Of a DNA stretch of 64,000 nt, positions 23,503-47,432 are shown in pieces (position 1 is the first letter of the stretch; the number at the start of each line of letters is the position of its first letter). The stretch lies in assembly GCA_035390825.1 (NCBI GenBank), contig DAOOUQ010000003.1:105268-169267 (forward strand), written 5' to 3'. This DNA comes from Bacteroidales bacterium (GTDB lineage Bacteria; Bacteroidota; Bacteroidia; Bacteroidales; VadinHA17). The translations under genes were made by a program, and so were the position numbers. The notes under the pieces are model-generated. The model was given only the letters and a program-made list of their open reading frames with translations. It searched no databases and had not been told where the DNA came from.

Positions 23503-23514
23503 ACTTCAATTGAA

Positions 23515-27458: not shown

Positions 27459-27460
27459 TA

Positions 27461-29060: not shown

Positions 29061-29090
29061 AATAAGGGCATGTCATGGCATGCCCTTATT
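29061..29090. terminator. Bidirectional hairpin terminator between convergent genes
   Basis: Perfect 12-bp stem AATAAGGGCATG / CATGCCCTTATT with the 6-nt loop TCATGG. It sits between the SusD stop (29047) and the radical-SAM stop (29089). Confidence 0.7.
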
Positions 29091-31465: not shown

Positions 31466-33160
31466 TTATATTATTCCTTTTCCCTGTTTTATCGTGATAT
31501 ACCTGTCAGCGGGTACATTCCTGTAAATTTCTTTCTGTCCGTCACTCCAGTGTATCTCAAGCGTATCAACAGATTTTGCATTTGCCAGACCTATATGTAT
31601 CCGTGGATCATTGTTTGAAAGATAGCTTGTTGCCCACTGGTTAACGAAAACCTGTCTTTTCCCTCCGGAAACCGCAACAACTTTTGCTGCTATTGCAGAG
31701 GACGGGCCGTTTTTGCCCTTCAGGTTAATACCCAGCCAGTGATTTGAATTGCCGCCATCATTCCTGAGCAGAGTTGCCGTTGCTTTCAGGTCAACGTGTG
31801 ATATAATAATATCCATATCACCGTCATTGTCATAATCCGAGACTGCCAGCCCCCTGCCTGACCGTTTCGTCGCGAAATAGGGACTGTATTTTTTCCCGGC
31901 ATCCGTGAAATGGCCCTTTCCGTCATTTTCAAGAAGAATGGGATACTGAAGGATCAGTTCTTCTGCTGTACCATTGGCAGAAACAATATCCTGATCACCG
32001 TCATTGTCAAAGTCAAGGAACGCGGCAGCCCAGGCGCCTTTTCCTGCGAGGGGGCCTGACACTCCGCTTGATTCCGTGATGTCCTCAAAGAATCCGTTCC
32101 CCAGGTTGCGGTATAGCGCGCCATATTCAAGATCAACGACGAGGATATCAAGAAGGCCGTCTCCGTCAACGTCTCCGACAGAACCGTGCATAGATCCGCT
32201 TCCTTTGCCCTGGCTGTTTGCCGCAACTCCAATTTCAACGCCGACTTCCTTAAAAGTCCCGTTGTCATTTCTGAACATGAAATTCAGCTGATGATCGTTA
32301 GCCTGAAAAATATCAATGTCGCCATCGTTGTCATAGTCAAAGACAGTGAGTCCCATGCATTTTGAATCGGGATAAAAGAGGTTGTTCTTCTGTGTCACGT
32401 CAACGAATTTTCCCCCCGGAGTCTGTTCATAAAGCATAGACGCCTGTCCTTTGTATTCAGAGGGATGAGGCATTATGTCGGGCGTGGCGGGCGTGAAATA
32501 ATCCGGATCGAAGGCAAGGAAGTTGCCAACCATTGCATCCAGTCTCCCGTCCATGTTATAATCCCAGAAGGAAACGCCGATGCTCCATTTTACAAAACCA
32601 TTAAGTTTTTCCGGACCTCTCAGGCCGAGCTGATCCGTAATATCTGTAAATGTCCCGTTGCCGTTATTCCTGAAAAACACATTCGGACCGTAATTAAGAA
32701 GATAAAGATCCTCGTCGCCATCATTATCATAATCTATTGCCCCTGCTGCCATGCTCCAGTTCAGGTCGCCAACTCCTGCATCAGCAGTTACATCAGTGAA
32801 AGTACCGTCACCATTGTTCCTGTACAGCCTGTCGGGTGTATTGGCGAATTTTCTGCCTTCTTTATCTGATACGCCATCGATATATGTTCCGTTAAGCATA
32901 TAAAGGTCCATCAGGCCGTCGGCGTTATAATCAAATACAGTCACTCCCGATCCGCTGCTCTCAAGGATGTTTTTGTACGAAAGGTCGCCGAATGTATACC
33001 TGAAATTGATTCCGGCTCTTTTTGTAACGTCAGTGAACTGTACAATTTTCTTCTGATCAGCTGAAGTGCAGAGAATCGTTACCAAGAGCACAACTAATGA
33101 ATACCTGAATCTCAAAATCTTCAAACATGAAACGGTTTTGTTGAATATTTCACCTGTCAT
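31466..33160 (-). CDS. CRTAC1-family protein (FG-GAP/VCBS repeats + ASPIC/UnbV C-terminal domain)
   Basis: 564 aa with repeated DxDxDGxxD Ca-binding loops (DYNADGLMDLY, DYDNDGDEDLY, DFDNDGDQDI, DYDNDGDMDI). The C-terminus HWLGINLKGKNG...NDPRIHIGLA...LEIHWSDG is ASPIC/UnbV-like. Confidence 0.85.
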   Translation of the reverse strand: MTGEIFNKTVSCLKILRFRYSLVVLLVTILCTSADQKKIVQFTDVTKRAGINFRYTFGDLSYKNILESSGSGVTVFDYNADGLMDLYMLNGTYIDGVSDKEGRKFANTPDRLYRNNGDGTFTDVTADAGVGDLNWSMAAGAIDYDNDGDEDLYLLNYGPNVFFRNNGNGTFTDITDQLGLRGPEKLNGFVKWSIGVSFWDYNMDGRLDAMVGNFLAFDPDYFTPATPDIMPHPSEYKGQASMLYEQTPGGKFVDVTQKNNLFYPDSKCMGLTVFDYDNDGDIDIFQANDHQLNFMFRNDNGTFKEVGVEIGVAANSQGKGSGSMHGSVGDVDGDGLLDILVVDLEYGALYRNLGNGFFEDITESSGVSGPLAGKGAWAAAFLDFDNDGDQDIVSANGTAEELILQYPILLENDGKGHFTDAGKKYSPYFATKRSGRGLAVSDYDNDGDMDIIISHVDLKATATLLRNDGGNSNHWLGINLKGKNGPSSAIAAKVVAVSGGKRQVFVNQWATSYLSNNDPRIHIGLANAKSVDTLEIHWSDGQKEIYRNVPADRYITIKQGKGII

Positions 33161-36100
33161 TTCCTCTCAGCGCATTAATGTATTCATTCCCGGTAACGAC
33201 TCGTGTGTTGTACTTTTTGTTGTATTCTCTTAGCTCTCTGCTGTCAGGATATGCATCCTCTGCCGAAGGCGGATAGTTTTTCATGCCATGGAAGGGCAGG
33301 GGCAGAACTGTATTCCCGAAAGCTGTATTGAGATCGCCATCTTTTACCCACCCTACACTATGTATGAGGAAATCCCGTTTCCAGCCTTCAGGGAGTGCAG
33401 GCAGATCTTTTTCACTGAACTCGATCGTAGTTTCATCTCCGGCGTTCGTTATGGCATATTGGTTATCCGGCTTTGTCAGAAGAGGCAAAACGTCCCCGAA
33501 TCGCGTATAATTGCCTGTGAGATCTCTCCATTTTGGCCCTTTCTCGACAGATGAATAATCAAACCAGTGGGGACCGTAACGGCCACCTTTCCTGTATAGT
33601 TTTGAAAATCCCCTGTAATGCAGGTCGGCCCGCAAAGGATCGATTACAGTGGTTACAGCAGGAATTCCGGGAACGGATGAGGCAAAGAAAATCTCATCCC
33701 AGTAAATCTGCATATTTGTCCTTATTCTTAACCTGTGGTCTTTTGTAATAAATTTCCCGGAAAGGTTAACTATAACCGTTTTGTCTTTCCCCATCGGGAA
33801 CCCTATGTTATCAGCTATTGTTTCCCATTCGCCTTTTTCGTTTACAGCCTGAATGACCGGGGGGTGTGATTCAGGCAAATCTGATTGTGCCATGGCAAAG
33901 TTTATGCTTGCATCTGTTGGGAATATCCATCCAGTCATGAATAAATAAAGATCGGGATTGTTTCCAGATTCGCCGGCATCAATAACTATGTCTCTCATTT
34001 CGGTTATTCCCTGGTATTTTCCTGTTTTAAAATCGGAGAGATATTTATCGTCTTTCTTTTCGATGAATGGAAGGATATCATTTCCTTCTCCATCGATTGC
34101 TGAAACAGGGGCTCTTTTACCATTGATCTTAATTATCTGAAGACCGGGAAATGGAGGAGGAGAGAACTGTTCAGGGACAAAAATATCCGAATTTGCCGGA
34201 TGGTCGACAGCAACCAGTTGTATCTGGTCAAGATAGATTGTCTCCCATAACTCCGAAGTAACCTGAATGGAGTATTTACCTTGTCTGGGTTTAAGTAACT
34301 CACCAGGGATCTTGATATAGTCGTCTGAGGCATCTGCAAAGGCATATGCCGTGTTCCCTCCCATGATACCTGTAGGCATTCCAAGTGCGCTTCTCCATAG
34401 AATATCCTTTACAAAGGTATACTCCTCACCGTTCCAGGTATAAAGGAAGGGACATGACCCTTTGAGAGTCTGTTCTTCGATCAGGGCCTGGTCTGAACCC
34501 GGCATGAAAATATTCTGAGGCACTCCGTTCGTCCATCTTATTCTTATAATGTCGGCTCTTGACCTGTTTCCTATTCCAAAATGAATATTTGGATCGGTTA
34601 CGACCAAAGTCTGGTAAAGATCTCCTGCCCTTACTTCAATTTTAGCTCCGATACCGAAGTGATTGTTTTTTGCGCTGCCTGCCTTCAGACCGACCAGTTT
34701 CATTGTAATGAAATGGTTGTTGTTGCCTCCATCGTTCCTTAAGAGAGTTACCCCGCCATTTGTACCTGCAACAACGGCATCAATGTCGCCGTCATCGTTA
34801 TAATCAAACAGGGTTATTTGTTTGCCGGAGTTAAGTTCCTGTGGCAAAAGTTGTGATACATCCCTGAAAATGCCATGGCCGTCGTTATATAAAAGGAACA
34901 TTGCTTTCCGGCCTTTTTCAACTGATTCGCCTGCAACCAACAGATCAAGAAATCCGTCATTGTTAAAGTCAAGGAATTTAGCATCATGCACTTTTATGGC
35001 ATCAAGTGCAGAGAATAGTTTTTCGTTTGACTTACTGGCCAGGAATTTTCCATCACGCTGGTTGACATAGAGGTTGTTTTTATTACCATTATCTGAACCA
35101 ATAAACAAGTCAAGGTATCCGTCATTGTTGAAATCACCGGCCGTAATTACAGATGCTCCCTTTAAATCTTGGAGGCCGCTGCCCTGAACAATATCCCTGT
35201 AAACACCCTGGCGCTGATTTGAGTAATATGCCGGAATTCCATCTTCATTCACAACGATGAAGTCGACATCCTCATCATCGTCAAAGTCTCCGAATACTGC
35301 ACCCCCTGGATGAATTGTCCCCGGCTGTTGTCCGAGCCGTTGCGACTGATCCTGAAACGTTCCGTCGCCTTCATTGCGGAGGTAGAGATTCCTGTCGCCG
35401 AGTATTTCCAATATATCGAGATCACCATCGTGATCCATATCAAATGCGAGGGCTGACCTTCCTCCTGTTCTGCTGCCGGCTCCTGATTGTGCCGTTACAT
35501 CTTCAAAAGTTCCCTTCCCGGTATTTTTGTAAAGGATATCGCCGCCTTCCGTCATTATGAAAAGGTCCTCATATCCGTCATTGTCAAAATCGGCAAAAAG
35601 AGCTGAGTTTTCTTTGCCTGAATGTTTAAGTCCGGCCGCCTTTGTCACGTCCGTAAATTTTCCCATCTCATTGTTGAGAAGGAAATGCCTGTATGTTGAT
35701 GAAGCTTTGTCATAGCTGCCTGCATATATATCTATATCTCCGTCGCCGTCGTAGTCGCAGGTCTCGACATGTGCAGAATAATCTGATCCCGGAGATCCGC
35801 TGCCCCCTGATGAGGATACTATATCCAAACCGGCAGCAGATGAAGCATCTGTGAATTTAATAACATCGAGAAGAGATTCATTTTCGACCGCCCGTGTTGA
35901 CGGCTGTCTGTCGAAAGTGATGACTGGGAATCCGATAAGTGAGCCTCCGGGTCCTTTCAGATCCATGATACCGGCCTGGTAGGGAGAGGTTACTTTCAGG
36001 TAGTTGTGAAAGATTGTATACTGGATCACAGCATTGTCTTTGTCCTTTTTTCTAAGGAGGGAAACTGTTTTGTTGTAATATTCTACGGCTTCCTTGGGGA

Positions 36101-36716
36101 ATTCAGGGAATTGCTTGTTAATGATCTCCATTTGTTCAAGTGCCTTGTCAAGTTCCCCGTTACGGATAAGAATATCGGTCAGGCTAAGCCGTGGGACCAG
36201 ATTGGCCGGAGCTTTTTCAACGAGTGTGTGCAGGTAATTTTCGCGCTGCCTTGCCGAACCTGAGTCAGGCATTGTAGAATAGAGTTCAGTGATCTCATAA
36301 AGGATCTTTAAATGCCCGGGAGCAAATTCGAGAGCCTTTTTCAGTTCGGAAACAGCCTTTTCCTTTTCATTGTTCATCTTAAATACTGTTGCCAGAATAA
36401 GTCTGACATCCGGATCCTGTGCATCGATTTTTATGGCCTTGTTAAGCTCTTTTTCTGCCTCGGGGTATTTCGCCATTCTCAGATAGGTAAGTCCGAGGTT
36501 GGCATATCCGAACTTATCTCCGGGCGCGAGGTCAATGAATTTCCTGAATTGCTGTTCCGCATCTTCAAGCTTAAACTCTTCAAGATAAGCAAGTCCGAGG
36601 GTTTTGACAGTGATAAGATCCGTCAGTTTGTCTCCTGATTTATTGCCGCCATTCCTGCATCCCCCGGATAAAATAACGCAGAAAGCGGCAAGAAGCAAAA
36701 TATTCCTGTTTTTCAT
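33150..36716 (-). CDS. TPR + FG-GAP/VCBS + ASPIC/UnbV lipoprotein with a ~480-aa uncharacterised C-terminal extension
   Basis: Lipobox (ILSGGC), N-terminal TPR-like repeats, multiple DxDxDG loops and an ASPIC block (NHFITMKLVG...IHFGIGN...IRIRWTNG), followed by a long unassigned tail. An alternative ATG at 36746 overlaps the upstream stop. Confidence 0.85.
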   Translation of the reverse strand: MKNRNILLLAAFCVILSGGCRNGGNKSGDKLTDLITVKTLGLAYLEEFKLEDAEQQFRKFIDLAPGDKFGYANLGLTYLRMAKYPEAEKELNKAIKIDAQDPDVRLILATVFKMNNEKEKAVSELKKALEFAPGHLKILYEITELYSTMPDSGSARQRENYLHTLVEKAPANLVPRLSLTDILIRNGELDKALEQMEIINKQFPEFPKEAVEYYNKTVSLLRKKDKDNAVIQYTIFHNYLKVTSPYQAGIMDLKGPGGSLIGFPVITFDRQPSTRAVENESLLDVIKFTDASSAAGLDIVSSSGGSGSPGSDYSAHVETCDYDGDGDIDIYAGSYDKASSTYRHFLLNNEMGKFTDVTKAAGLKHSGKENSALFADFDNDGYEDLFIMTEGGDILYKNTGKGTFEDVTAQSGAGSRTGGRSALAFDMDHDGDLDILEILGDRNLYLRNEGDGTFQDQSQRLGQQPGTIHPGGAVFGDFDDDEDVDFIVVNEDGIPAYYSNQRQGVYRDIVQGSGLQDLKGASVITAGDFNNDGYLDLFIGSDNGNKNNLYVNQRDGKFLASKSNEKLFSALDAIKVHDAKFLDFNNDGFLDLLVAGESVEKGRKAMFLLYNDGHGIFRDVSQLLPQELNSGKQITLFDYNDDGDIDAVVAGTNGGVTLLRNDGGNNNHFITMKLVGLKAGSAKNNHFGIGAKIEVRAGDLYQTLVVTDPNIHFGIGNRSRADIIRIRWTNGVPQNIFMPGSDQALIEEQTLKGSCPFLYTWNGEEYTFVKDILWRSALGMPTGIMGGNTAYAFADASDDYIKIPGELLKPRQGKYSIQVTSELWETIYLDQIQLVAVDHPANSDIFVPEQFSPPPFPGLQIIKINGKRAPVSAIDGEGNDILPFIEKKDDKYLSDFKTGKYQGITEMRDIVIDAGESGNNPDLYLFMTGWIFPTDASINFAMAQSDLPESHPPVIQAVNEKGEWETIADNIGFPMGKDKTVIVNLSGKFITKDHRLRIRTNMQIYWDEIFFASSVPGIPAVTTVIDPLRADLHYRGFSKLYRKGGRYGPHWFDYSSVEKGPKWRDLTGNYTRFGDVLPLLTKPDNQYAITNAGDETTIEFSEKDLPALPEGWKRDFLIHSVGWVKDGDLNTAFGNTVLPLPFHGMKNYPPSAEDAYPDSRELREYNKKYNTRVVTGNEYINALRGNDR

Positions 36717-36745
36717 AACATCAAAATTAGCAATAAAAGGGAACA

Positions 36746-37858
36746 TTATTCAGGTTTATAAGGAACTCCTTCCTTCAGTGTCATTATACCGAAATCTCCA
36801 ATTCTGTTACCTTTGTCATCGAAACTTATCCGGCCTGTAACACCACTATAGATCATGCTCTTCACTGTTTTCTGAATAAGCTCCCTGTCGTTAACTCCCG
36901 ATTTCTTTATTGCTTCAATAAGCAAGCCAGTGGCATCATACGAAAATGAAGCCATCATACCCGGAAATACTCCATATGTGACGAAGTAAGCTTTTTTAAA
37001 ATCATTATTTTCCTTATTGTTCCAGTTGCCTGATGCCACACGGATTTTATTGTCAAAAACCCCAATTTCAGCTGGGGTTAATATGTTCTCATTGGCAGCA
37101 AGAAGAGAAGAAAAAATATTAATCTCCGGTTTCTTTTCAGATAATATTTCCGTAATTACTTTTGAAATTTCCGGAGTGCAGAACAGAACGATGCATTCAG
37201 TCTCTGATTTAGCTATTTTCTCGGCAATCATTTCAGCATCATTTCCCGATTCAACTGTGTAGTAGAATGAGGGATCATGTTTCCCTGCAGCTTTTATTTC
37301 TTTCAGAAATGTAGCTGAAGCCATATCTGAGTCATAGTCTTTAGCGGAAACGACAGTTATCTTATTGAAACTATGTTTATTGTATATTGAGTAAATAATG
37401 GATCGGGCTTGCTGCCGGTCGGTCGGCACACAATTAAAAAACCAAGGTACAAAAGCCTGGGAAAGAGTAGGGTCAGAAGACCAGGCTGAAACATAAGGTA
37501 CTATTGATTTTGTCGCAGCCTGTTCAACAAGGTGGGCGTTCCTTCCGTCGTGGCAGCCTGTCAGAGCCCAAACTTTTTCCTCAAAAATAAGGTCTACAGC
37601 TTGTTTTGACCCTGTTCCCCAGGGTCCTTCCATCGATCTGACGATCAGGCTGAATTTTTTCCCGTTGAAACCACCTTCAAGGTTGGCCTTGCGTATTGCC
37701 AGTTCTGCTCCCCTGACAGCAGCCTCTGATTCTTTGTCCTGTATCAGCAGGCCTATTTTTATCGTATCATCCTTCCGGTCACCGCCGGGGAATGGCAAAG
37801 GTATATTAAAACCGGTCAGGGCCAGAAAAATGCCGGCAAGGAGTATAGGATAATTCAT
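36746..37858 (-). CDS. Type-I periplasmic binding protein (LivK/Peripla_BP_6-like), orphan
   Basis: 370 aa with a signal peptide and a LivK-like N-terminus (IKIGLLIQDKESEAAVRGAELAIRKAN). No ABC permease or ATPase gene is nearby. Confidence 0.72.
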   Translation of the reverse strand: MNYPILLAGIFLALTGFNIPLPFPGGDRKDDTIKIGLLIQDKESEAAVRGAELAIRKANLEGGFNGKKFSLIVRSMEGPWGTGSKQAVDLIFEEKVWALTGCHDGRNAHLVEQAATKSIVPYVSAWSSDPTLSQAFVPWFFNCVPTDRQQARSIIYSIYNKHSFNKITVVSAKDYDSDMASATFLKEIKAAGKHDPSFYYTVESGNDAEMIAEKIAKSETECIVLFCTPEISKVITEILSEKKPEINIFSSLLAANENILTPAEIGVFDNKIRVASGNWNNKENNDFKKAYFVTYGVFPGMMASFSYDATGLLIEAIKKSGVNDRELIQKTVKSMIYSGVTGRISFDDKGNRIGDFGIMTLKEGVPYKPE

Positions 37859-37877
37859 CTGTCTTCTCCAAACGCCA

Positions 37878-38762
37878 TCATATCAGTGAAGGTTCAGGTT
37901 TTGCTAGTTTCCTGCCGACTGCCCGTGCAATCTTGTCAAGGTCGGTCATCAGGGCAGAAAACTCTTCAGGGTTGATTGACTGGTGCCCGTCGCAAAGTGC
38001 CTCTTCAGGGTTATAATGGACTTCCATTATGAGACCGTCGGCACCGGCTGCTATGGCAGCTTTTGCCATTGTCGGAACCATCCATCGGAGGCCTGTGCCG
38101 TGGCTCGGATCGACTATTACCGGAAGATGGCTTAAATGCTTAAGCATGGGAACCGCACTGAGATCAAGTGTATTACGTGTAGTTGTTTCAAAAGTACGTA
38201 TGCCTCTTTCGCAGAGAACCACCTGGTCGTTACCCTGGCTAAGTATATATTCAGCGGCAAGCAGGAATTCTTCAATAGTTGCCATCATGCCCCTTTTGAG
38301 CAGAACAGGTTTTTTCTGCATTCCCACTTCCTTGAGCAGCACGAAATTCTGCATGTTTCTTGATCCGACCTGGAGCATGTCGGCATATTCAGAAACGAAT
38401 TCTACATGCCGTGTATCCATAACCTCCGTAACGAAAGGCAGTCCTGTTTCGAGACTGATCTCCTTAAGTAATTTTATGCCTTCACTTCCAAGGCCCTGAA
38501 AATTATAGGGAGAGGAACGTGGCTTAAAAGCGCCTCCCCTTAATATAAGCCCTCCTGATATTTTAACTGCATATGCAGTTTCTCTCAGCTGTTCAGAGCT
38601 TTCAACAGCACATGGACCGGCAATGACAACAACCCCGTTAGGACCGATTTTGAGTCCGCCCACATTTACCTCAGAGGCTTCGGAATTTGATCTCCTGCGA
38701 ACCTTGGAAGGCACTGAACATCCCCCTGATATTGACGGATCATTATTTCTGTTTGATTCCAT
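37878..38762 (-). CDS. aroF: 3-deoxy-7-phosphoheptulonate (DAHP) synthase, class I-beta, with a ~45-aa N-terminal extension
   Basis: Motifs [34 protein letters not shown] and VDPSHG are diagnostic of the KDO8PS-like DAHP synthase family. Confidence 0.88.
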
Positions 38763-38778
38763 TTTTTTATTTCTTAAG

Positions 38779-40092
38779 CTATTGATAAGCCACCCTGGGT
38801 TTCTTATAAATTACATTTTCCTTTTCCCACCGCGGGGCAGGAGAGAAGTGAAATTTTCCGTTACTTACCTTTGCCAGGTAAATAGGCCTGATATTATTCC
38901 ATGTACCGTCAAAAACAACTTTGCCTGTTACACCCTGATAACCCTGGAAGGTTTTAAGGTCTGTCAGGATATCACGTATGAGAGCTCTGTTCAGGCCTGC
39001 TTTCCTGATGGCTTCAATTATTATATTCATGCCATCGTAAGCATGTGCCGCAAATACATCAGGTTCCATACCAAATCTCTCTCTGAATCTTTTTCTGAAA
39101 GCTATAAGAGCCGGGTCATTGGAGTCAGGGTTATACTGACATGTAGTTATTAAGCCCTCAGCGAGATTCCCAGTCTCTTTAAGGAATTTCTCGTTTACCA
39201 TTCTATCAGATCCGTAAACCGGCTGATTCAGGCCCATAGCTCTCAGCTGTTGAAGAATAAGTGCTGATTCTCTTGCATTACCCCATATGAGAACAGCATC
39301 AGGGGATGTCTTCTTTACTCTTTCGATCTGGGCCTTAAAATCAGATTCTCCGTCGCTGAATCTTTCTTCTATAATAATGGGGAAACCTATTCTTGTAGCT
39401 GAGCGGTTGAAATGAAGAGTCCCGACTCTGCCATAACGGTTGTTGGCTCTGATTACTGCAACGCGTTTATGTTTGTCTTTATTGAAGATCTGGTCAACAA
39501 GCACGTAGCTGCTTTGCCTGTCGTCGGGGATTGTCCTTATCACCCATGGAATATTTGTTTCGGTGAATGTCGGATCGGGATCACCTGTGTTAACATTGGG
39601 GATTTCGAGTTTCAGGGTAGCTCTTATTGCAACATGAGAAACAATGTCATCGATTGATCCCAGCCATGCCCATACTCCCTCGTCATCCATTTTTACAACC
39701 TCATTGGCTGCTGCTCCCCAAAGCCCGACATCATTATGGATCATAAGTTTGAACGGCATACCCTTGTAGCCTCCCTTTTTATTGGCTTCCTCTATTGCCA
39801 AAGTAGCTCCGTGAAGCATCTGTTCGCCAAGGTCCTGAATTATAGAACCCTCAAGAGGTCCGAGGAACCCTATCCTTACTTCTGTCAGATTGGTTGGAGG
39901 CAGTTTTTCACGACCGGCACCGTAGAATTTCATGGGTTCCAGAAAATGATATTTATAAGCCTTCATATACCTGTCATATGCTACTAGTTCATCAGGTATA
40001 TTACCATAATTTGAAGGTAATTGCTGCCCTGACAATATTGAACATGTTGTTGTCAGGATCAGGAATGTCAGAATCCGGTAATGGGTTTTCAT
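38779..40092 (-). CDS. Type-I periplasmic binding protein (LivK/Peripla_BP_6-like), orphan, second copy
   Basis: 437 aa with a signal peptide and LivK-like blocks ([12 protein letters not shown]...[14 protein letters not shown]). Confidence 0.72.
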
Positions 40093-40102
40093 ATTTTTTT
40101 GT

Positions 40103-40678
40103 TTAGTTTATTTTACTAATGGCATAAGTTTCAATCTCCACCAGAAGAGTTTCCCAGCATAATCTTGCCTGAATCCCTGTACTGGCAGGCAGGGGATCAA
40201 GATTCATCCATCGGAAAAATGATGTGCGTATCTTATTGAATTCCTCGTAATCCCTTTCAATATCCCTTAGGTAATTGGTTGTCCTGATCACATCATGCCA
40301 TGTCATACCTTCGGCTGAAAGAAGATTTGTGATATTCCTGTAAGTCCTCCAGGTCTGAGCTTTGAAATCACCTATATGCTCTGCCTTCCCTTCTTCATTG
40401 ACACTAGCTGTACCTGAAATTAAAAGGATTTTATAACCTCCCAGTTCCAGACGAAGGGCTCTTGTAAATGATGATGGTTTTTTATAATCATAAGCTTCAT
40501 TTATTACCTGCGGTGCATGTACCGCGAATTTTTCAACAGGAGGTCTTTCTGTATGAACGGCTGGATAGTTGTAATCTTTTAACGTCAAATCTTCTTTGAG
40601 AATCCCCAGTTTAATCATTTCAGCTTTCTCACCATCCGTGAGTTTTGTCAGATCTATCAACAGTTGTTTGTTATCCAT
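40103..40678 (-). CDS. YjgF/RidA-fold protein with a chorismatase-like ISGTASV motif
   Basis: Core sequence KILLISGTASVNEEGKAEHIGDFKAQTWRTYRNITNLL. The track start at 40717 is TTG; the first ATG (MDNKQ...) is at 40678. Confidence 0.62.
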   Translation of the reverse strand: MDNKQLLIDLTKLTDGEKAEMIKLGILKEDLTLKDYNYPAVHTERPPVEKFAVHAPQVINEAYDYKKPSSFTRALRLELGGYKILLISGTASVNEEGKAEHIGDFKAQTWRTYRNITNLLSAEGMTWHDVIRTTNYLRDIERDYEEFNKIRTSFFRWMNLDPLPASTGIQARLCWETLLVEIETYAISKIN

Positions 40679-40713
40679 TTTAGTTATATGATTTTTCTTA
40701 TTAAACAATATTC

Positions 40714-41901
40714 TCAATGTATTCTTTCACCCCTTGCCACTCCTTTTGAAGTTGCCACCCACAGGTAATCATCGCTGGCATCTACTCCGATAATAAAATT
40801 GTGGGAAATTGATGGCGACAAAGGAATCTCTTTCTTTTCACTCCCGTTTGTTATAATAGCTTTGCCGTTCTCATCATTATCATTTTTCTTATATGTTACC
40901 CATGTCTTCCCATCGAAGCTGCTTAATCCGTTATCGCTGCAGACAAATACCACCGGACCTTCAGCCCTGAGAAAGTTTATGAAATTGCTTGCCAATCCGC
41001 TGTCATGGTCAAAATAGCCTTTCCAGTTTTTGCCGTCATAGCGGCTCATTCCGAAATATGTTGAAACCCATAAGATACTGTCAGAATACGATGTTGCTGT
41101 TGTTATGTCATGGACAACTCCATCATCAGGCTGAAGGTCAATCTCCATGAAGCCATCGGGGTCAACATAATCCCTGAAATGTTTGGTTTGGGTATTGTAT
41201 TCAATAACCCCTCCGCCCCAAGCTGCTATCCATACTTTCCCATCTCCCGCCGATAATGCATATGTCCATGGTTCATGCATTGGTGCGTTCATTTCGGTGA
41301 ATATCTCCCACTGTTTTGTCCGGGTGTCATAATGGCCGGCCCCTCCTCCTGTTGCAACCCATATATCCTTTCCATAGCAAAATACATTGTATACCAGATC
41401 GTTTGGCATACCGCTGTTAAACTGATTGAATGTCTCAAATTTCCCTGATGACCAGCGACTAAGGCCACCAAGTGTTCCAATCCATACATCACCTGTAAGC
41501 TGGTCGACATCAATTGACACGATACCATTATGCGGGAGGCCGTCTTGTGTGGTGTATGTCTTCCATTTCCCATTCTGATATACGGCCAGGCCATCATGTG
41601 TTCCGACGAGAACCCGGTCACCATCAATCCTCACCGCATATGCTTTATCTGAAGGAAGTCCATCTTTTGTGGTAAAATTCTTCCAGTTTCCATAGACAGG
41701 CATTTCACCGGCTTCTTTTATCACATTGGAGCTACTTCCAGGGTACTTGTCAGAATTGTTGTGATAATCTGTGCTCTCTTTGAACTTCGCAGGGTTTAAA
41801 GCAAAAGTCGACTTTTCATTTTTAATGAAAAGAAATATTACCACAAGAACTATTCCGGCAGTAATCAGAATTGCAGCAAAATATTTGACTAAGTTTTTCA
41901 T
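40714..41901 (-). CDS. Membrane-anchored two-component-regulator-propeller (Reg_prop) repeat protein without an output domain
   Basis: 395 aa with an N-terminal TM helix and repeated GLPSDKAYAV.../DGLPHNGIVSIDVD...VWIGTLGGLSRW units, as found in the sensor domains of hybrid two-component systems. Confidence 0.7.
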   Translation of the reverse strand: MKNLVKYFAAILITAGIVLVVIFLFIKNEKSTFALNPAKFKESTDYHNNSDKYPGSSSNVIKEAGEMPVYGNWKNFTTKDGLPSDKAYAVRIDGDRVLVGTHDGLAVYQNGKWKTYTTQDGLPHNGIVSIDVDQLTGDVWIGTLGGLSRWSSGKFETFNQFNSGMPNDLVYNVFCYGKDIWVATGGGAGHYDTRTKQWEIFTEMNAPMHEPWTYALSAGDGKVWIAAWGGGVIEYNTQTKHFRDYVDPDGFMEIDLQPDDGVVHDITTATSYSDSILWVSTYFGMSRYDGKNWKGYFDHDSGLASNFINFLRAEGPVVFVCSDNGLSSFDGKTWVTYKKNDNDENGKAIITNGSEKKEIPLSPSISHNFIIGVDASDDYLWVATSKGVARGERIH

Positions 41902-41922
41902 GGGGTAATTGTTAATATGAAT

Positions 41923-43968
41923 TTATTTTTTTCGATGAAGAAATGACGCCTGGTGAATTTTTGTTTCTTTTTTGTTTTCATATTCAGGATCTCTGAGAGA
42001 TTTGAGATATTCTACCAACTCGTTGAGCTGTATCTTTGTAAGGTCATTTAATGATCCATGTTCCTCTGTTTTACCATAGATGGTCCATATCTCTTCAAGG
42101 GTTGCCGCACGTCCATCATGAAGGTAGGGTGGCGAAGCAAAAATATTATTAAGATGAGGAGTATCGAAAAGTATGGAGTCGTCTGTTGCAGCAAGAGTTC
42201 CAACACCGGCAGGCTTCATGTTTGTATAATATGGTGCCGGGTGGCAAGTGTTGCACCTGTTTGTAACAGGGATCTCATTTCCTTTATTGTCGTGCGTACG
42301 TTCAAAAATCTCCTTCCCGCGTTTCTGGGCTTCTGTAAGTTCCCCGTCTGGATTATACATAAGATTGGGAGGGTTTGGAATTCCTGTCATTATGTATGCA
42401 GTAAGCGCATCAAGATCCTTATAGCTGAAAGCCTCGGTACGGGTGAGGACGGTTGAGAACCGCATACCGTCCTGTTTATACACCGACTGGTTTTTCCCGT
42501 TCCATTTATAGGGAGGGGTATCCCCGATATTCCTCAACGACTGGGTATTTGTCATGTTCCTGCCCATATCCTTTGATGCCATGTTGTATGTAAGTCCATC
42601 CTCATGTGCGTCAGGATGGCATGTATAGCATGAATACTGGGTCTGAAAGGTACCTCCGGCGTTATTCAGCAGCCTTCGGCCGTGGCGTGCGACTGTTATT
42701 CTACCTGATCCTCCGAGGTGGATGGTGCCTTCTGACTCCAATGTCTCAGTATTTATGACAGCTATCCTGTCTTCAAGGTGCTCGGCAACATAAAGGGTTT
42801 TTCCGTCGGGCGAGAGCGACATCCCTTTGGGGTTAGCCCCGGTGGATATCCTTTTTATTACGATTCTGCTGCTTATCCCCAGGTGGTTTGCATACATTTC
42901 AAGCTTGTCATCTGTAATACCGCTTATGAGTCTTCTCACCGCATCAAGATCGACAACAGTGATTTTATCGACTCCCGAATGAGAGACAAATGCCTTTTTC
43001 CCATCTGGCGATATTGCTATGTCGAAAGGATCAGCATAATACGTATTAGGTTCATCCAAAAGAAGCTGAATTGTTCTTCCTGAAGGTTTGTTCTCAACAA
43101 TTCCTATGCCTTCAGTCATCATCCAGCCTCTTTCAACCTGTACTGTCGGAACATTGTTCTTTGGCCTTATCAAAGGGATTATTGCCAGGTCTCCTGACGG
43201 AGTGAATTCTACATTCTCCATCATATAGGCCGATTTAATGTCTCTCCTTTCGGATATCCTCTGGTTAAGGTCGTTAATACCTGTAAGTTCACACCTTATT
43301 GTATCTCCGTAAGGAGCTGAAAGAGTTCTTCTGCTTGTAACGTAAAGTAATGATCCATCATGGCTTTTACCGATCCCTGTCGGATTATTTCCGGCGGTAA
43401 GACGTTTTATTTCCTCACCAGTGGAAAGATCAATCACTGAAATATCCGATGAAAAGGAATTCACCGAATACAGGAATTTTTCGTCGGAACTAAGTGCCAG
43501 CCCTGCGGGTCCGCCTCCGGTCTTTAAGGTGTCTGTAACTTCATAGTTTTTAAGATCTATAACAGAAACGTTGTCGGACCATTGATTGCTCACATAGGCT
43601 TTGTTCCCTGATTTATCTATTATTACTGAATGGGGATGGATGCCGACCGGAATTTCTTCGGTAACTTTTTTTCTGTCATTATCGATAACCAGTAGTGAAT
43701 TTCCGTCTTCTGCTACTGCAAAGATTGATTTTCCGTCTTTTGACACTGCAAGGTTTAAAGGGGAATAATACTTTGCATTTACAATTCTGGCTACAGGGCC
43801 TGATTTAATGATGTACAGGTGACAGGAGCTGCATTTCAGAGGGTGGTCGTCAGTGGCTGTGATATAATTGACATGTTCCCTCGCCCATTTGTGGTACCGG
43901 GGATAAAAGATTAATCCAAGGACAGCTATTATCCCTGCCGGTATGATTATTTTCAGATATCCTTTCAT
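41923..43968 (-). CDS. Membrane-anchored tri-heme protein: CxxCH + YVTN beta-propeller + di-heme cytochrome c peroxidase/MauG domain
   Basis: 681 aa with an N-terminal TM helix. Heme motifs are CSSCH, CYTCH and CNTCH. There are YVTN-type repeats (SKDGKSIFAVAEDGNSLLVID, DKSGNKAYVSNQWSDNVSVIDL). CCP/MauG hallmarks are QSLRNIGDTPPY and PPYLHDGRAATLEEIW. Confidence 0.75.
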   Translation of the reverse strand: MKGYLKIIIPAGIIAVLGLIFYPRYHKWAREHVNYITATDDHPLKCSSCHLYIIKSGPVARIVNAKYYSPLNLAVSKDGKSIFAVAEDGNSLLVIDNDRKKVTEEIPVGIHPHSVIIDKSGNKAYVSNQWSDNVSVIDLKNYEVTDTLKTGGGPAGLALSSDEKFLYSVNSFSSDISVIDLSTGEEIKRLTAGNNPTGIGKSHDGSLLYVTSRRTLSAPYGDTIRCELTGINDLNQRISERRDIKSAYMMENVEFTPSGDLAIIPLIRPKNNVPTVQVERGWMMTEGIGIVENKPSGRTIQLLLDEPNTYYADPFDIAISPDGKKAFVSHSGVDKITVVDLDAVRRLISGITDDKLEMYANHLGISSRIVIKRISTGANPKGMSLSPDGKTLYVAEHLEDRIAVINTETLESEGTIHLGGSGRITVARHGRRLLNNAGGTFQTQYSCYTCHPDAHEDGLTYNMASKDMGRNMTNTQSLRNIGDTPPYKWNGKNQSVYKQDGMRFSTVLTRTEAFSYKDLDALTAYIMTGIPNPPNLMYNPDGELTEAQKRGKEIFERTHDNKGNEIPVTNRCNTCHPAPYYTNMKPAGVGTLAATDDSILFDTPHLNNIFASPPYLHDGRAATLEEIWTIYGKTEEHGSLNDLTKIQLNELVEYLKSLRDPEYENKKETKIHQASFLHRKK

Positions 43969-43970
43969 AT

Positions 43971-45407
43971 CTATTCAAGTTCAACGATCTTTTCTTTAAT
44001 CTCAGTAATATGAACCGGTATTATGACCGGATCTTTCCTAATAGCGAATGATACTCTGTTTTCGGGTGCAAATTCAGGATCTTCGTGGCATCCGACACAT
44101 CCACGCCTTTCGTTGGGACGAAGCCACAACCATGAGCAGGCCGGGCCAACCGGGTTCCCTTTTTCGTCAAGGGCCCTGATCCTGAATGGCTTGTCGGCCA
44201 TTACCTTAAGATAAAAAGATCCGTCTTTTTCGACCTTTACCACCCCATATGTTGAGTCGACTCCAAGCACTTCAATTCTGTCGGCCTTAACCTTTGAAGT
44301 GTTACCATGGCTGAAAAGATGCTCCTGGAAGTTTACGTCCTGGCAAAGGATAAGACCCGTTTTGACCATAAGATCGACTTCGCTGGGAAGCTTTTTGGGC
44401 CGGTTGTATGCTCCGGCGACGGCAACATCAATTATGTTATACCCGGGATTTTTGAAGACCTCCCTGCCAACCGAACTTTCTGACACATTGAAGTCGTACA
44501 GCCCGAAAAGGTCAGATCCCTTCTTTCGGAATGAAACAAGGAAATCATTATCAGCAAGAGGCAGGGCATATAGAAAATCGCCGTCAGATCCTGTTGACAA
44601 CTCTTTTCTTGTGAAGAGCGGACGGCTGTATTCAATCGAAACCAGATTCCCTCCCGTAAGGCCGTTTTTACCTGATTCAACAAAGATTATCCTGCCATCA
44701 TCTGTTTCGCAGGCGCTGTTCAGAAAACCGGATTGACCGGAAATGTTTTTATAGAATACATCAGCCTTTGTTCCGTCGGGACGCATCACCATGAGAACGG
44801 GGTCTCCCTTCTCGGGGAATGTTTGCGTTACGATAGTTAAAATCCGGCCGTCTTTAAGTATTGTACTGGCAAAATGCGATTGCGGGCTGAATGTAATCTG
44901 CTTAAGATCAGATCCGTTTAAACTGCAGGTATATAAACAGTGGGAATTTCTGACTGTGTCATTTATCGTATGTTTGCTGAATGTAAATCTTCCTCCCGGG
45001 AGGTAAGAAGGATCTGTGCAGTCTTCCTTCGATGAAGTTATCTGCCTGTATTTTCCATTGCCCAGTTTCATCTCCCAGATCTGCCAGATATCGCCTTTTG
45101 AAAGCTGTCCGGCGAAGATCATTGATTTGCCGTCGTATGAGATATCCGGGAAACATGCGGAATAAAAATCCTTTGTGAGGATCCGTGCAGATCCGGGTTT
45201 GTTAAGAGTGAATTCGCTGATCCTTGCTCCGGGTAAATACCGCCAGGATACCCCACTTAAATAATCCGGCGACAAAGTAATACTTCCCGGAGCTTCAGTA
45301 AGGATCAGCTTTGTTTTATTTGAACTGCTGCCTGAGCATGAAGCAAGAATCAGGCATGGAAATGTCAAATATATTAATTTAAAAAGGATTTTTTCTTTCA
45401 TACACAT
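43971..45407 (-). CDS. PD40/TolB-like beta-propeller lipoprotein with a C-terminal HzsA-like CxxCH module
   Basis: 478 aa with a lipobox (LILASCSG) and PD40-like repeats (SYDGKSMIFAG, RPDGTKADVFY). The C-terminus is CSWLWLRPNERRGCVGCHEDPE. The stop lies 2 nt before the next start. Confidence 0.62.
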   Translation of the reverse strand: MCMKEKILFKLIYLTFPCLILASCSGSSSNKTKLILTEAPGSITLSPDYLSGVSWRYLPGARISEFTLNKPGSARILTKDFYSACFPDISYDGKSMIFAGQLSKGDIWQIWEMKLGNGKYRQITSSKEDCTDPSYLPGGRFTFSKHTINDTVRNSHCLYTCSLNGSDLKQITFSPQSHFASTILKDGRILTIVTQTFPEKGDPVLMVMRPDGTKADVFYKNISGQSGFLNSACETDDGRIIFVESGKNGLTGGNLVSIEYSRPLFTRKELSTGSDGDFLYALPLADNDFLVSFRKKGSDLFGLYDFNVSESSVGREVFKNPGYNIIDVAVAGAYNRPKKLPSEVDLMVKTGLILCQDVNFQEHLFSHGNTSKVKADRIEVLGVDSTYGVVKVEKDGSFYLKVMADKPFRIRALDEKGNPVGPACSWLWLRPNERRGCVGCHEDPEFAPENRVSFAIRKDPVIIPVHITEIKEKIVELE

Positions 45408-45430
45408 ATTAAAAAGGTGAAACAGGGATT

Positions 45431-47092
45431 TCAGGGTTCTTTTACTTCAAGGATCTGGTTCGCATTGATATTTTCCAGGGTCTGGGTTTTCCCTGAAGGC
45501 CATATTATTTCTATTTTATCTACAATCTGATTCTTGCCCAGTCCGAAATGGATTCTAGGATCATTTTGGGAGAGATAACCTGTTGTTGTTTTTCTCTGGG
45601 CCAACTGTGTTTTTCCTCCGGATGTAATCTTGATCCGTGCCCCGATTCCGTCCCTGTTGCCGGAAGTTCCGGTAAGGGACAGCATTATCCAGTTATTCTG
45701 GTTCCCCTTGTTGTTTCTAAGGAATGCGCAGTGACTGTTAAGGTTGACGACAAAAACATCCATGTCGCCGTCATTGTCATAGTCGCCTATACAGGCTCCG
45801 CGTCCGACAAATTCCTGGCTGAAGTACTTCCCCAGTTCAAGTGAAACATCCCTGAATTTTCCTCCACCTTCATTATGGAACATCTGATCTTCCTGACCGT
45901 AAAGATGCTTTAATGCACCGTTTGTCTTGAAGATATCAGCCAGACCGTCATTGTCGTAGTCTGTGAAGGTTGACGACCATCCGACAAACTGGGCGGCTGC
46001 AGATGAGATATTTGATGAGATGCCTTTATCGGAATAGATTCCGTTACCAACATTTTCGTATAAGGAGCAATATGTATCGTCTGAAACAAAGAGGTCAAGG
46101 AGTCCGTCCTCATTGAAATCAGCGAAATCTACCGACATGCTTACGGTTGCTTCCCCTGCCTGGCTGAAAGCGGTTCCCGACATTGTTCCCCTGTCGGTAA
46201 ATCCTTTTCCGCCATCGTTATGCCAGAGGTAGTTAAGGGTATGGTCATTTGCGACATATATGTCCACAAAGCCATCCTCGTCATAATCAGCGGCTCCCAC
46301 ACCCATTGCTCTTCCATCTGTATCCACGATGCCCATGCGGTCTGTGACATTTTCAAAAGTGCCATCGCCGTTATTATGATAAAGTATATCCTTTTGTGCA
46401 TCATAAGCCATAGGACCGGGGAAACCGTCGGGGGCATAGAAATACTTGTATTCGGGATCAAATGTCAGATAGTTGCCTACGTAAAGGTCGAGGTATGAGT
46501 CATTGTCGTAATCTAACCAGACGGCACCCACGCTGCATTCATTGCCACCTGACACACCCGCTTTTTTTGTAACATCTGAGAATGTGCCATTGCCGTTATT
46601 TTTGAGCAGAACGTTAGTCCCGTAATTACTAATGAAAAGGTCCGGGAATCCGTCATTATTGAAATCTCCTGCCACTGCACCCATACTATACCAGGGACCG
46701 TAGACGCCAGCTTTTTTCGACACATCTTCAAACGTCCCGTCACCCCTGTTATGGTAAAGATGATTGCCAGGCAAAACAGATGGTTTTTCCATTTTGCTAA
46801 CGCCATCGAGCCATGTTCCGCTGCAGGCATAAATGTCGATCCATCCGTCTTTGTCATAGTCAAAGAAAAGTGCACCGCCGCCAGTCGAGTAGATTATGTT
46901 CGTCAGTTCATCATCACCGATTGAGTGTGTGAAATCAAGTCCTATTTCCCGGCTTATTTCCTGGAAGTAGTCATTATTTGCAGGGGGAGCCGACAATTTG
47001 TTTGTACCAGCGGGGGAGTCATTACCTGACCGGCATCCGGAAACAAGGACCCCGGTCAAAGTAATCAAAAAGAAAAAACTTTTTAGTTGCAT
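45431..47092 (-). CDS. CRTAC1-family lipoprotein (FG-GAP/VCBS + ASPIC/UnbV)
   Basis: 553 aa with a lipobox (LVSGC) and DxDxDG loops (DYDKDGWIDIY, DFNNDGFPDLF, DYDEDGFVDIY, DYDNDGDMDVF). The ASPIC tail is NNWIMLSLTG...NDPRIHFGLG...IEIIWPSG. Confidence 0.85.
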   Translation of the reverse strand: MQLKSFFFLITLTGVLVSGCRSGNDSPAGTNKLSAPPANNDYFQEISREIGLDFTHSIGDDELTNIIYSTGGGALFFDYDKDGWIDIYACSGTWLDGVSKMEKPSVLPGNHLYHNRGDGTFEDVSKKAGVYGPWYSMGAVAGDFNNDGFPDLFISNYGTNVLLKNNGNGTFSDVTKKAGVSGGNECSVGAVWLDYDNDSYLDLYVGNYLTFDPEYKYFYAPDGFPGPMAYDAQKDILYHNNGDGTFENVTDRMGIVDTDGRAMGVGAADYDEDGFVDIYVANDHTLNYLWHNDGGKGFTDRGTMSGTAFSQAGEATVSMSVDFADFNEDGLLDLFVSDDTYCSLYENVGNGIYSDKGISSNISSAAAQFVGWSSTFTDYDNDGLADIFKTNGALKHLYGQEDQMFHNEGGGKFRDVSLELGKYFSQEFVGRGACIGDYDNDGDMDVFVVNLNSHCAFLRNNKGNQNNWIMLSLTGTSGNRDGIGARIKITSGGKTQLAQRKTTTGYLSQNDPRIHFGLGKNQIVDKIEIIWPSGKTQTLENINANQILEVKEP

Positions 47093-47252: not shown

Positions 47253-47432
47253 TAAACAATTATAAAAATTAATTGTTAAATAAGTGTTAAAAGCAAATTA
47301 AAAGGCAATTAAAAATTAGGTTGGTTAAAAACACTGCAAGAAATTTGAATGGCTGTACCAGATTACAGGCGATGATAGCTGACAAAGCAATTTTGTCCGG
47401 GAATCTGGCAATCATGAAATACAGAACCCGGT

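Follow-up and report, generated by a model that had tools for sequence, protein, structure and literature searches.

The locus described here raises the question of what a long run of exported CRTAC1-like proteins, c-type haem proteins, beta-propellers and periplasmic binding proteins does together in one Bacteroidales genome. It lies on contig DAOOUQ010000003.1 of an uncultured Bacteroidales metagenome-assembled genome (MAG), and the whole stretch analysed, positions 105,268 to 169,267 of that contig (64 kb), is called the window. Ten minus-strand open reading frames (ORFs) at 31466-47092 of the window are named g1 to g10, and two further genes at 29089-31354 are named d1 and d2. In the public records they are HOW08609-HOW08620, where their annotations are generic ('CRTAC1 family protein' or 'beta-propeller fold lactonase family protein', for example). 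An earlier, sequence-only reading of this DNA had counted an 'HzsA-like' protein (g2) and a fusion protein (g3) among an orphan set, and had missed that, taken together, the two are homologous to the whole of hydrazine synthase (HZS). We favour, with moderate confidence, the view that the cluster is the Bacteroidales form of a cross-phylum module, in which a periplasmic, membrane-tethered c-type haem enzyme that is HZS-like but not HZS is accompanied by obligatory binding proteins.

Hydrazine synthase homologues

Together g2 and g3 constitute a complete HZS homologue, made of an alpha-like subunit and a fused beta-gamma-like subunit. The whole of g3 matches the NCBIfam model hydrazine_BC (4.9e-70), its residues 63-407 match hydrazine_beta (1e-60) and hydrazine_gamma is matched at 1.4e-21, and g2 matches hydrazine_alpha (2.4e-34). 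In the PDB the best sequence matches of g3 are 5c2v_B (HZS beta, 1.1e-46) and 5c2v_C (HZS gamma, 1.5e-17), and g2 matches 5c2v_A (HZS alpha) at 4.7e-33, in three stretches ending at the alpha-I haem motif. Taken alone, the C-terminal domain of g3 matches 5c2v_C at 4.7e-19 and ordinary di-haem peroxidases at 1e-4 to 1e-5. Since both NCBIfam and the PDB place g3 with HZS beta and gamma, the pair is better regarded as a complete HZS-like enzyme than as an arbitrary mix of domains. The earlier description of g3 as a 'YVTN::MauG/CCP fusion' was right as to the propeller and the CCP_MauG Pfam domain but too general, the protein being specifically a fused HZS beta-gamma homologue (5c2v_B/C, hydrazine_BC).

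The AlphaFold2 (AF2) model of g2 (pLDDT 81.5, pTM 0.83) returns 5c2v_A on top in Foldseek (E 2e-25, TMq 0.75), and the next fold, TolB, follows at 1e-8, seventeen orders weaker. For g3 the model was built from a shallow alignment (70-88% identity) and is confident for the propeller alone, which has 5c2v_B on top (E 1.9e-32, TMt 0.89). The AF2 di-haem domain is unreliable and therefore the likeness to HZS gamma is stated by sequence alone.

The haem motifs are conserved, as the earlier reading had proposed to check: 66 of the 67 g2 orthologues have one CxxCH and 73 of the 78 g3 orthologues have three. The lipobox Cys24 of g2 is kept in 99% of its orthologues. In the alignment of g3, W489, H617, H637 and both C-terminal CxxCH motifs (C447, C572) are invariant across phyla, and the domain that holds them scores 33 bits against CCP_MauG (PF03150; cut-off 25.6). 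Trp489 occupies the position of the inter-haem Trp of CCP and MauG, and H637 is aligned with the 'HG' His of HZS gamma. Y631, which is Y or F across phyla, is aligned with the Met of the 'MG' motif of 1iqc, which we take to be the axial ligand of CCP. In the alpha-like subunit the haem context CxGCHEDxExxPxN is invariant in 50 proteins of different phyla. The longer pattern W-x-W...R-G-C-x-G-C-H-E-D-x-E-x-x-P-x-N, corresponding to g2 residues 426-450 (about 44058-44132), is likewise invariant in 50 alpha-like proteins, as is Cys355. To judge from this alignment, the acidic H-E-D-x-E tail, which stands in place of the Tyr segment of HZS alpha, may define the active site of the family.

The residues that define true HZS are absent, and the cluster therefore does not encode an anammox enzyme. 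The ligand of haem alpha-I in HZS is Tyr591, four residues past the CxxCH His (Dietl 2015, as cited in PMC12758564). In g2 (478 aa) the single CxxCH is at 437 and the C-terminus comes 37 residues later, so that the alpha-II haem and the last ~100 residues are missing. After H441 the protein continues EDPEFAPENRVSF..., with no Tyr up to the C-terminus that could stand in for alpha-Tyr591; all 50 family members compared share E442, D443 and E445. The HZS-gamma insert bearing Cys165 is missing from g3, which has Asp500 at the place of the clade-I Cys ('RQCG'), retained in the ten-haem relatives, and Trp489 at the position of gamma-His144. All equivalog cut-offs of NCBIfam are missed: alpha (NF052339) 118.4 against 800, beta-gamma (NF052342) 236.5 against 1250, beta (NF052340) 205.8 against 560 and gamma (NF052341) 76.8 against 625.

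Comparison with known systems

Co-localised alpha and beta-gamma HZS homologues were sorted in clades I-IV by Hagglund et al. 2025 (Genome Biol Evol 18:evaf244; PMC12758564), published December 2025, who did not propose a function for them. In their clade III alpha is upstream of beta-gamma and has an FG-GAP/CRTAC1 gene upstream of it, alpha lacks the alpha-II site and stops ~100 residues early, beta-gamma carries a single additional haem motif and a Trp at gamma-His144, and two substrate-binding-protein genes lie downstream (PMC12758564). The present cluster is alike in each respect: the CRTAC1 gene g1 stands 23 nt upstream of g2, g2 ends 2 nt before the fused g3, alpha is short, beta-gamma has one extra haem motif and the Trp at gamma-His144, and g6 and g8 (both Peripla_BP_6) are the two binding-protein genes downstream. 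We thus assign it, by matching all published descriptors rather than by tree placement, as a putative member of the clade III kind. Since every clade III descriptor of PMC12758564 is found here, the kind is already known, albeit bioinformatically and recently alone. The earlier statement that no characterised system has this composition holds for experimentally characterised pathways, none of which matches, but the composition itself has been described (PMC12758564, clade III). The hit table of that paper lists Bacteroidales alpha homologues, including one on contig JADGPT010000008, which is our locus L036, and cultured carriers named in it include Syntrophobacter fumaroxidans, Thermogutta terrifontis and Opitutus terrae. 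The paper is silent on the Reg_prop gene and on two binding proteins in ten-haem (clade I-type) clusters. It is silent too on the DAHP synthase, Rid-like, asparagine-synthase (AsnS)-like and radical S-adenosylmethionine (SAM) genes, the two-component system, the operator and the SusCD operon.

With HzsABC of 'Ca. Kuenenia stuttgartiensis' (5C2V/5C2W) the pair g2-g3 shares the fold of all three subunits (that of gamma as judged from sequence), the alpha-I, gamma-I and gamma-II haem motifs and the 'HG' His (H637). A beta-gamma fusion is also found in Ca. Scalindua (PMC12758564). Unlike HzsABC, g2 has no alpha-II haem and no Tyr591-type ligand and carries a lipid anchor, and g3 has Asp500 and Trp489 for gamma-Cys165 and gamma-His144, together with an extra N-terminal haem and a transmembrane (TM) anchor. 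The gene order is reversed and the location is periplasmic, with no anammoxosome. Moreover anammox clusters do not have the CRTAC1, Reg_prop and binding-protein genes (PMC12758564) that are present here.

The di-haem CCP/MauG/MbnH family (PF03150) resembles g3 in having two CxxCH motifs with an intervening conserved Trp and in the 'PYLHDG...TLEE' stretch common to g3, 1iqc, 3o5c and 6e1c. The Trp lies in 'KWNG' in g3, and the CCP equivalent is 'FWDG'. Unlike these proteins, g3 combines its di-haem domain with a YVTN propeller in one chain and is accompanied by an alpha-like haem subunit. It also differs from di-haem CCPs in having Y631 at the 'MG' Met of 1iqc and the invariant His637, and its similarity to them (E 1e-4 to 1e-5) is to be set against 5e-19 for HZS gamma.

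Conservation within Bacteroidota

A scan with one genome per species gave 80 loci, all from Bacteroidota and mostly from Bacteroidales MAGs of sediments, fens, soils and digesters. A gene was scored as kept if its strand and its place in the order agreed with the window, and each count refers to the loci whose flanks reach far enough. On this count g1 is kept in 66/66 loci, g2 in 71/72, g4 in 74/74 and g6 in 68/68, followed by g8 (60/63), g7 (61/66), g9 (43/57) and g5 (45/73). The histidine kinase (HK) is present in 33 of 59 loci, and the response regulator (RR) lies upstream of the cluster in 31 of 56. The gene order holds down to 58% identity in g3 and 33% in g2. Conservation of the order, which the earlier reading had named as a check, is thus seen in essentially all of the 80 species genomes with a long enough contig, and a chance juxtaposition of the cluster genes is rejected by these counts. 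The Rid-like gene g5 looks like a recurrent but dispensable companion. Two tandem copies of the DAHP synthase gene are found inside the operon in L034 and L043, and in L087 (1258-2386) the g8 orthologue is split in two ORFs (188 and 202 aa), by a frameshift or pseudogene formation or by an assembly error.

A six-gene core in distant phyla

The alpha-like family is large, with 3,330 clusters at 50% identity having E <= 1e-3 and 385 having E <= 1e-30, and some of its members are long forms that have two haem motifs. With one long form as query, contigs of six relatives were obtained, of which three are named Pirellulales, Sedimentisphaerales and Phycisphaerae. All six loci have, in the same order, genes for HZS_alpha, a CRTAC1-like protein (~540 aa), beta-gamma, a Reg_prop-type protein (344-425 aa) and a Peripla_BP_6 protein. 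A second Peripla_BP_6 gene comes next in five, and in L086 the sixth gene is cut by the locus end and has no Pfam match. The CRTAC1 gene of these six loci stands between alpha and beta-gamma, which is also its place in clades I and II (PMC12758564). Conservation of the neighbourhood beyond Bacteroidota, another check proposed earlier, is therefore borne out, the core recurring in six distant loci with three named as Planctomycetota. New with respect to earlier descriptions are the six-gene cross-phylum core itself and the presence of the Reg_prop gene and two binding proteins in the ten-haem form too.

Each of the six distant beta-gamma proteins has ten CxxCH motifs except that of L081, which has nine and whose gene call is apparently truncated N-terminally; all but the last two motifs lie within an N-terminal cytochrome-c554-like region. 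In the alignment, the one haem motif near the N-terminus of g3 falls on the eighth and last of those in the N-terminal region of the long form, which makes the Bacteroidales enzyme look like a twelve-haem enzyme cut down to four haems. Downstream of the distant module there is often a convergent TPR-FG-GAP-UnbV giant or a further CRTAC1 gene, and similar giants flank the module in L082 and L085. Just upstream of the module in L082 (Sedimentisphaerales) there is a 368-aa Rid-family gene.

Pairwise identities between the window proteins and their distant counterparts are 43-48% for g1, 40-45% for g3, 41-53% for g4, 43-45% for g6, 26-33% for g8 and 26-30% for g2. The CRTAC1-like, Reg_prop and first binding proteins are thus better conserved to distant, partly planctomycete loci (41-53%) than alpha is (26-30%), and these identities indicate that constraint on the 'accessory' binding proteins is no weaker than on the alpha subunit. 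None of the DAHP synthase, d1, d2, SusCD and two-component genes occurs in the six distant loci, which marks them as Bacteroidales additions, and no polymer-degrading enzyme was found in the cross-phylum core of these loci.

Extent and content of the operon

Eleven genes had been counted between 31466 and 47092, but the ORF listing gives ten, as did the items of that reading's own list. The junctions from g1 to g10 are 23, 2, 21, 35, 10, 16, 19, -1 and -11 nt, which agrees with the range of -11 to +35 nt reported earlier when the g5 start is set at M14 (40678), as used by its orthologues. An N-terminal lipobox, signal peptide or TM anchor is present in eight of the ten products (not in g5 and g7), where nine of eleven had been claimed. 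Pfam and NCBIfam searches agree with the domain calls of the sequence-only reading for all cluster proteins and with its statement that the span holds no carbohydrate-active enzyme (CAZyme) and no ABC permease or ATPase. The four CxxCH motifs that it counted are present as well (g2 C437; g3 C46, C447 and C572). The HK/RR pair was also correctly placed upstream on the same strand (Table 1).

The inference of a single operon stood in that the order is kept in related genomes, but its low-coordinate boundary was wrong, as d1 and d2 belong to it. In L087 and L088 d1-d2 follow g10 as the last shared genes, the neighbours beyond d2 differing between genomes, and in eight more distant Bacteroidota loci the block g9-g10-d1-d2 lies upstream of g1 instead of downstream of g8. 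Because d1-d2 follow g10 or move with g9-g10 in this way, the operon in Bacteroidales comprises twelve genes, the last ending at 29089. That the whole cluster behaves as one operon for an exported haem and binding machine is supported. This twelve-gene extent and the Bacteroidales additions (DAHP synthase, Rid-like, AsnS-like and radical SAM genes) are also new.

Table 1. Features of the HZS-like operon and its regulatory neighbourhood (window positions)
Feature	Position	Strand	Basis and remarks
g1, CRTAC1-like lipoprotein	45431..47092	-	Pfam FG-GAP propeller + UnbV_ASPIC; lipobox VSGC
g2, HZS-alpha-like lipoprotein, one haem c (C437-VG-C440-H441)	43971..45407	-	Pfam HZS_alpha 1.1e-17
g3, TM-anchored fused HZS-beta-gamma-like protein	41923..43968	-	haem C46, 7-bladed YVTN propeller, CCP/MauG-like di-haem domain (C447, C572)
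g4, TM-anchored Reg_prop-type beta-propeller	40714..41901	-	Reg_prop 24.9 bits vs cut-off 20.4
g5, cytoplasmic Rid/YjgF-fold protein, 191 aa	40103..40678	-	Ribonuc_L-PSP 9e-16
g6, type-I (LIV-family) periplasmic binding protein SBP1	38779..40092	-	Peripla_BP_6 3.6e-51; PDB 4gnr 3.7e-27
g7, type I-beta DAHP synthase, cytoplasmic	37878..38762	-	NF006421 437.7 bits vs cut-off 335
g8, second, divergent type-I binding protein SBP2	36746..37858	-	Peripla_BP_6 1.9e-28
g9, TPR + FG-GAP + UnbV_ASPIC lipoprotein, 1198 aa	33150..36746	-	Pfam
g10, CRTAC1-like protein	31466..33160	-	Pfam; after g9 in loci reaching that far
d1, asparagine-synthase-like PP-loop protein, SAGIDS at 178	30029..31354	-	Asn_synthase 7e-8
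d2, RaSEA-like radical SAM enzyme, CPFHCLMC	29089..30036	-	TIGR01210 7.4e-31, 107.5 bits, below cut-off 212
Sensor histidine kinase, HAMP-HisKA-HATPase	47433..48803	-	Pfam; TIGR01386 199.5 bits, below cut-off 292
OmpR/PhoB-type response regulator	48924..49598	-	Response_reg + Trans_reg_C; TIGR01387 226.7 bits, below cut-off 279
Candidate operator TTTAAT-N4-TTTTAAT-N4-TTTAA, 11-bp period	47276..47313	-	~185-220 nt upstream of g1, in 340-nt leader
Second candidate operator copy TTTAAT-N4-TTTTAAT	49747..49763	+	91 nt before SusC start
Divergent operon: SusC, SusD, CRTAC1-like 1101 aa, Fib_succ_major lipoprotein 232 aa, CRTAC1-like 1097 aa	49854..62359	+	Pfam

The g1 protein matches the human CRTAC1 structure 9etn at 3.7e-21, and g4 is called a 'ligand-binding sensor domain' in the source annotations. 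For d1 and d2, PDB sequence and profile searches gave no significant relative, and no convincing small ORF that could encode a peptide substrate of the radical SAM enzyme was found in the 340-nt leader of g1. An Rfam scan of 28.5-50 kb detected no riboswitch or known RNA, giving chance microRNA-level matches alone. The scan for sigma-70 promoters and terminators in 28.5-48.4 kb was uninterpretable, as it does not cover Bacteroidota promoters and its counts were modestly above those of shuffled sequences.

Beyond the operon, a GH106 alpha-L-rhamnosidase (1139 aa; 15009-18428, minus strand) and an M61 glycyl aminopeptidase (13158-14996, minus strand) are ordinary Bacteroidales catabolic genes, and in other genomes this pair (13158-18428) is unlinked to the cluster. 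In L088 (9946-18951) d2 is followed by an NMN transporter gene and then by genes for a TonB receptor, MGMT, an acyltransferase, an M61 peptidase and a DDAH-like protein, corresponding to window 12362-24117. As L088 passes directly from d2 to these genes, the SusC/SusD pair at 24285-29047 (plus strand) of the window is an insertion relative to L088.

Binding proteins and cytoplasmic proteins

Unlike the binding proteins of ABC importers, g6 and g8 have no adjacent permease and ATPase genes. No such partners were found in the operon or its flanks, and importer-type genes are likewise missing from the six distant loci; L081 and L084 have exporter-type ABC genes on the other strand. The binding site of g6 was compared with that of E. 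coli LivJ, in an alignment that reproduces the coordinates of the 4gnr match. In it, the carboxylate-binding Ser79, Thr102 and Tyr202 of LivJ correspond to Asp149, Pro172 and Asn272 of g6. Asp148, Asp173, Tyr220, Asp296 and Arg297 of g6 are invariant in all 76 aligned sequences, including the binding proteins of the distant loci, and Asp171 is found in 89% of the 76, every distant one included. Such an acidic pocket suggests a small cation as ligand, which might be an amine, ammonium, hydroxylammonium or a metal. As the pocket is both acidic and invariant, our best guess is a small cationic nitrogen compound and not an amino acid or a polymer. This pocket lead, like that on H637 as a candidate haem ligand in g3, is also new.

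A profile of 13 g5 sequences finds the RidA family best in the PDB, with FkbO at E 0.11. The RidA motif is 'PAR'; g5 has 'PAS' in its place and the RidA arginine is missing. A chorismatase reading of g5, which would have paired it with the DAHP synthase, was rejected on this profile (RidA-type, FkbO E 0.11) and is a weak lead at most. The cytoplasmic proteins g7, g5, d1 and d2 may supply an aromatic precursor or a cofactor, or may merely be co-regulated with the rest.

Regulation and the divergent SusCD operon

Upstream of the RR gene a divergent operon starts with SusC (49854-52991, plus strand), and SusC/SusD orthologues (58-94% identity) lie beyond the RR in about 17 loci. The pattern TTTAATN4TTTTAAT has two matches in the 64-kb window, those of Table 1, with 0.00 expected by chance. 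In 1.43 Mb of related loci 49 of the 52 matches to the three-repeat pattern lie within 400 nt upstream of g1; of the 80 matches to the two-repeat core, 55 precede g1 and 16 fall between the RR and SusC genes, oriented like SusC. A looser scan of g1 leaders finds the repeat in most loci that keep HK/RR and in few without them. The TTTAAT repeats are therefore a likely operator of the adjacent OmpR-type regulator. This candidate operator, and the tie that it would make between the HZS-like operon and the divergent SusCD-CRTAC1 operon, is also new. Since the divergent operon carries the same repeats, the import of a substrate or cofactor precursor across the outer membrane is suggested. There are five CRTAC1-like proteins in the putative regulon; the literature searched gave nothing useful on the function of the bacterial CRTAC1/UnbV_ASPIC family, nor on vadinHA17 cytochromes.

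Alternative explanations

The two roles put forward by the sequence-only reading, oxidation of a polymer and MauG-type maturation, turn out no better supported than other rivals. An HZS-like complex acting as a peroxidase or as an NO or hydroxylamine reductase in the periplasm of anaerobes, with its partners as scaffolds, is unlikely. In its favour, the C-terminal domain has a CCP-like core and the carriers come from anoxic or micro-oxic habitats, judged by record titles. The gamma-I haem of HZS binds NO, with a proposed reduction to hydroxylamine (PMC12607021), which also favours detoxification. A six-gene module with two dedicated binding proteins and 40-50% identity across phyla nevertheless goes far beyond the needs of known detoxifying CCPs. 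The invariant His637 aligns with the HZS-gamma His, in the Met-ligand region of peroxidases, and co-regulation with a SusCD importer points to a nutrient and not to stress.

Slightly less likely is a MauG/MbnH-type maturation, in which the di-haem domain of g3 would oxidatively modify a cluster partner (a CRTAC1-like protein, a binding protein or g2), giving a protein-derived cofactor or a metal site, the rest of the cluster being the client or clients. The CCP_MauG score given above, weak NCBIfam matches to MbnH and MauG, a match to the MbnH structure 6e1c at 3e-5, and the positions of Trp489 and Y631 agree with it, and the HK and RR resemble heavy-metal sensors, as expected of copper-linked MbnH systems. 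Both regulators are, however, below the cut-offs of the heavy-metal families, and residue 631 is Y or F across phyla where H637 is invariant and aligned with the HZS-gamma His. By far the closest relatives of g3 are HZS beta and gamma, not MauG, and an alpha-like haem subunit and two binding proteins have no counterpart in MauG/MbnH systems.

A locus resembling a polysaccharide utilisation locus (PUL) for a non-carbohydrate polymer, to which CRTAC1-like surface proteins would bind, whose fragments SusCD would import and which the haem enzyme would oxidise, is quite improbable. As in SusC/SusD PULs, SusC/SusD stands beside a sensor/regulator and binding proteins with a common candidate operator, here shared by the divergent SusC/SusD operon with its two CRTAC1-like giants and Fib_succ_major lipoprotein, and the regulon has its five CRTAC1-like proteins and no CAZyme. 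Unlike PULs, the regulon (29089-62359) contains no glycoside hydrolase, lyase or esterase, and a haem enzyme forms its conserved centre; in the six distant loci the core persists without SusCD or any degradative enzyme. Lipoproteins exported to the cell surface of Bacteroidota are marked by acidic residues behind the lipobox Cys, and the CRTAC1-like lipoproteins have none there. In addition the binding proteins are of the LIV family, whose ligands are small molecules.

Marginally more improbable still is a metal or metallophore system, with the binding proteins and propellers handling a metal cation, and g7, g5, d1 and d2 making a chorismate-derived chelator that returns via SusC. The acidic and invariant SBP1 pocket would fit it, as would an HK/RR pair nearest to heavy-metal sensors, weak matches of g3 to the zinc chaperone AztD and to a PQQ-ABC-associated propeller family, a TonB-dependent receptor in the regulon, and a DAHP synthase with a weak chorismatase-like match in the operon. 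The cytoplasmic enzymes are, however, absent from the six distant loci, and there is no exporter, non-ribosomal peptide synthetase (NRPS) or NRPS-independent siderophore (NIS) synthetase. The g5 profile leads to Rid proteins (FkbO E 0.11), and an HZS-like enzyme with four haems here and twelve in the distant loci is left unaccounted for as the invariant centre.

A genuine HZS, meaning cryptic anammox-type hydrazine formation in Bacteroidales, is rejected as having next to no probability: homologues of all three subunits are present in the right adjacency, but the NCBIfam scores are far below the cut-offs, the HZS-defining residues are absent, no hydrazine dehydrogenase (HDH)/hydroxylamine oxidoreductase (HAO)-type enzyme occurs among the Pfam-scanned ORFs of at least 150 aa in the 64-kb window (several ORFs below 12 kb and that at 62332-62865 being unscanned), and PMC12758564 concludes likewise for the whole HZS-homologue family, key residues not being conserved.

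Proposed mechanism

In the HZS-like module that we favour, g2 and g3 would form a catalytic complex, as HZS subunits do. Electrons could enter at the g3 haem beside the membrane anchor (the N-terminal, vestigial one), pass via a gamma-II-like haem, with the invariant H637 as candidate sixth ligand as in HZS gamma, and then via the invariant Trp489 to a gamma-I-like catalytic haem, from which a small intermediate or product would be passed on to the His-ligated alpha haem of g2. Capture and presentation of the substrate or substrates would fall to both binding proteins together with the Reg_prop propeller and the CRTAC1/TPR proteins, the predicted ligand of SBP1 being a small cationic nitrogen compound of the amine, ammonium or hydroxylamine type. 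In Bacteroidales the adjacent OmpR-type two-component system probably controls the module through the TTTAAT direct repeats, and the divergent SusCD-CRTAC1 operon may import a substrate or a cofactor precursor across the outer membrane.

Several points weigh against this proposal. Substrate, direction of electron flow and the g2-g3 complex are all inferred by analogy with HZS, and since the residues that make HZS work are missing in g2 and g3 the analogy may not extend to the chemistry. In the AF2 model of g3 the di-haem domain has a pLDDT of about 25, and the models contain no haems. The reading of the SBP1 pocket depends on the alignment to E. coli LivJ and is a lead only. Binding proteins with no transporter and a Reg_prop propeller could equally be sensors. 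Moreover the proposal gives the DAHP synthase, Rid-like, AsnS-like and radical SAM proteins no explained role, and 28 of 73 loci do without g5, mostly more distant ones (L059-L080, where it would lie between g4 and g6).

Implications

HZS was long thought to have no relatives, and a catalogue of its homologues outside anammox bacteria dates only from December 2025. The present analysis places an HZS homologue at the centre of a tightly conserved module and not in an isolated gene pair. With more than 3,300 clusters at 50% identity in the alpha-like family, this is an abundant periplasmic redox system of sediments, wetlands, soils and digesters. Experiments could start from the operon as now delimited, from the candidate ligand-binding proteins or from the two-component system and its predicted operator, and the analysis hints at the kind of ancestor from which HZS evolved. 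A bolder proposal, which we rank behind detoxification and maturation and regard as doubtful, is that the six-gene core is an unrecognised two-site periplasmic haem system, widespread among non-anammox anaerobes, by which they carry out nitrogen chemistry related to that of HZS; for example, hydroxylamine- or hydrazine-type intermediates might be made or consumed from an amine delivered by the binding proteins. If true, this would represent a new reaction in the microbial nitrogen cycle.

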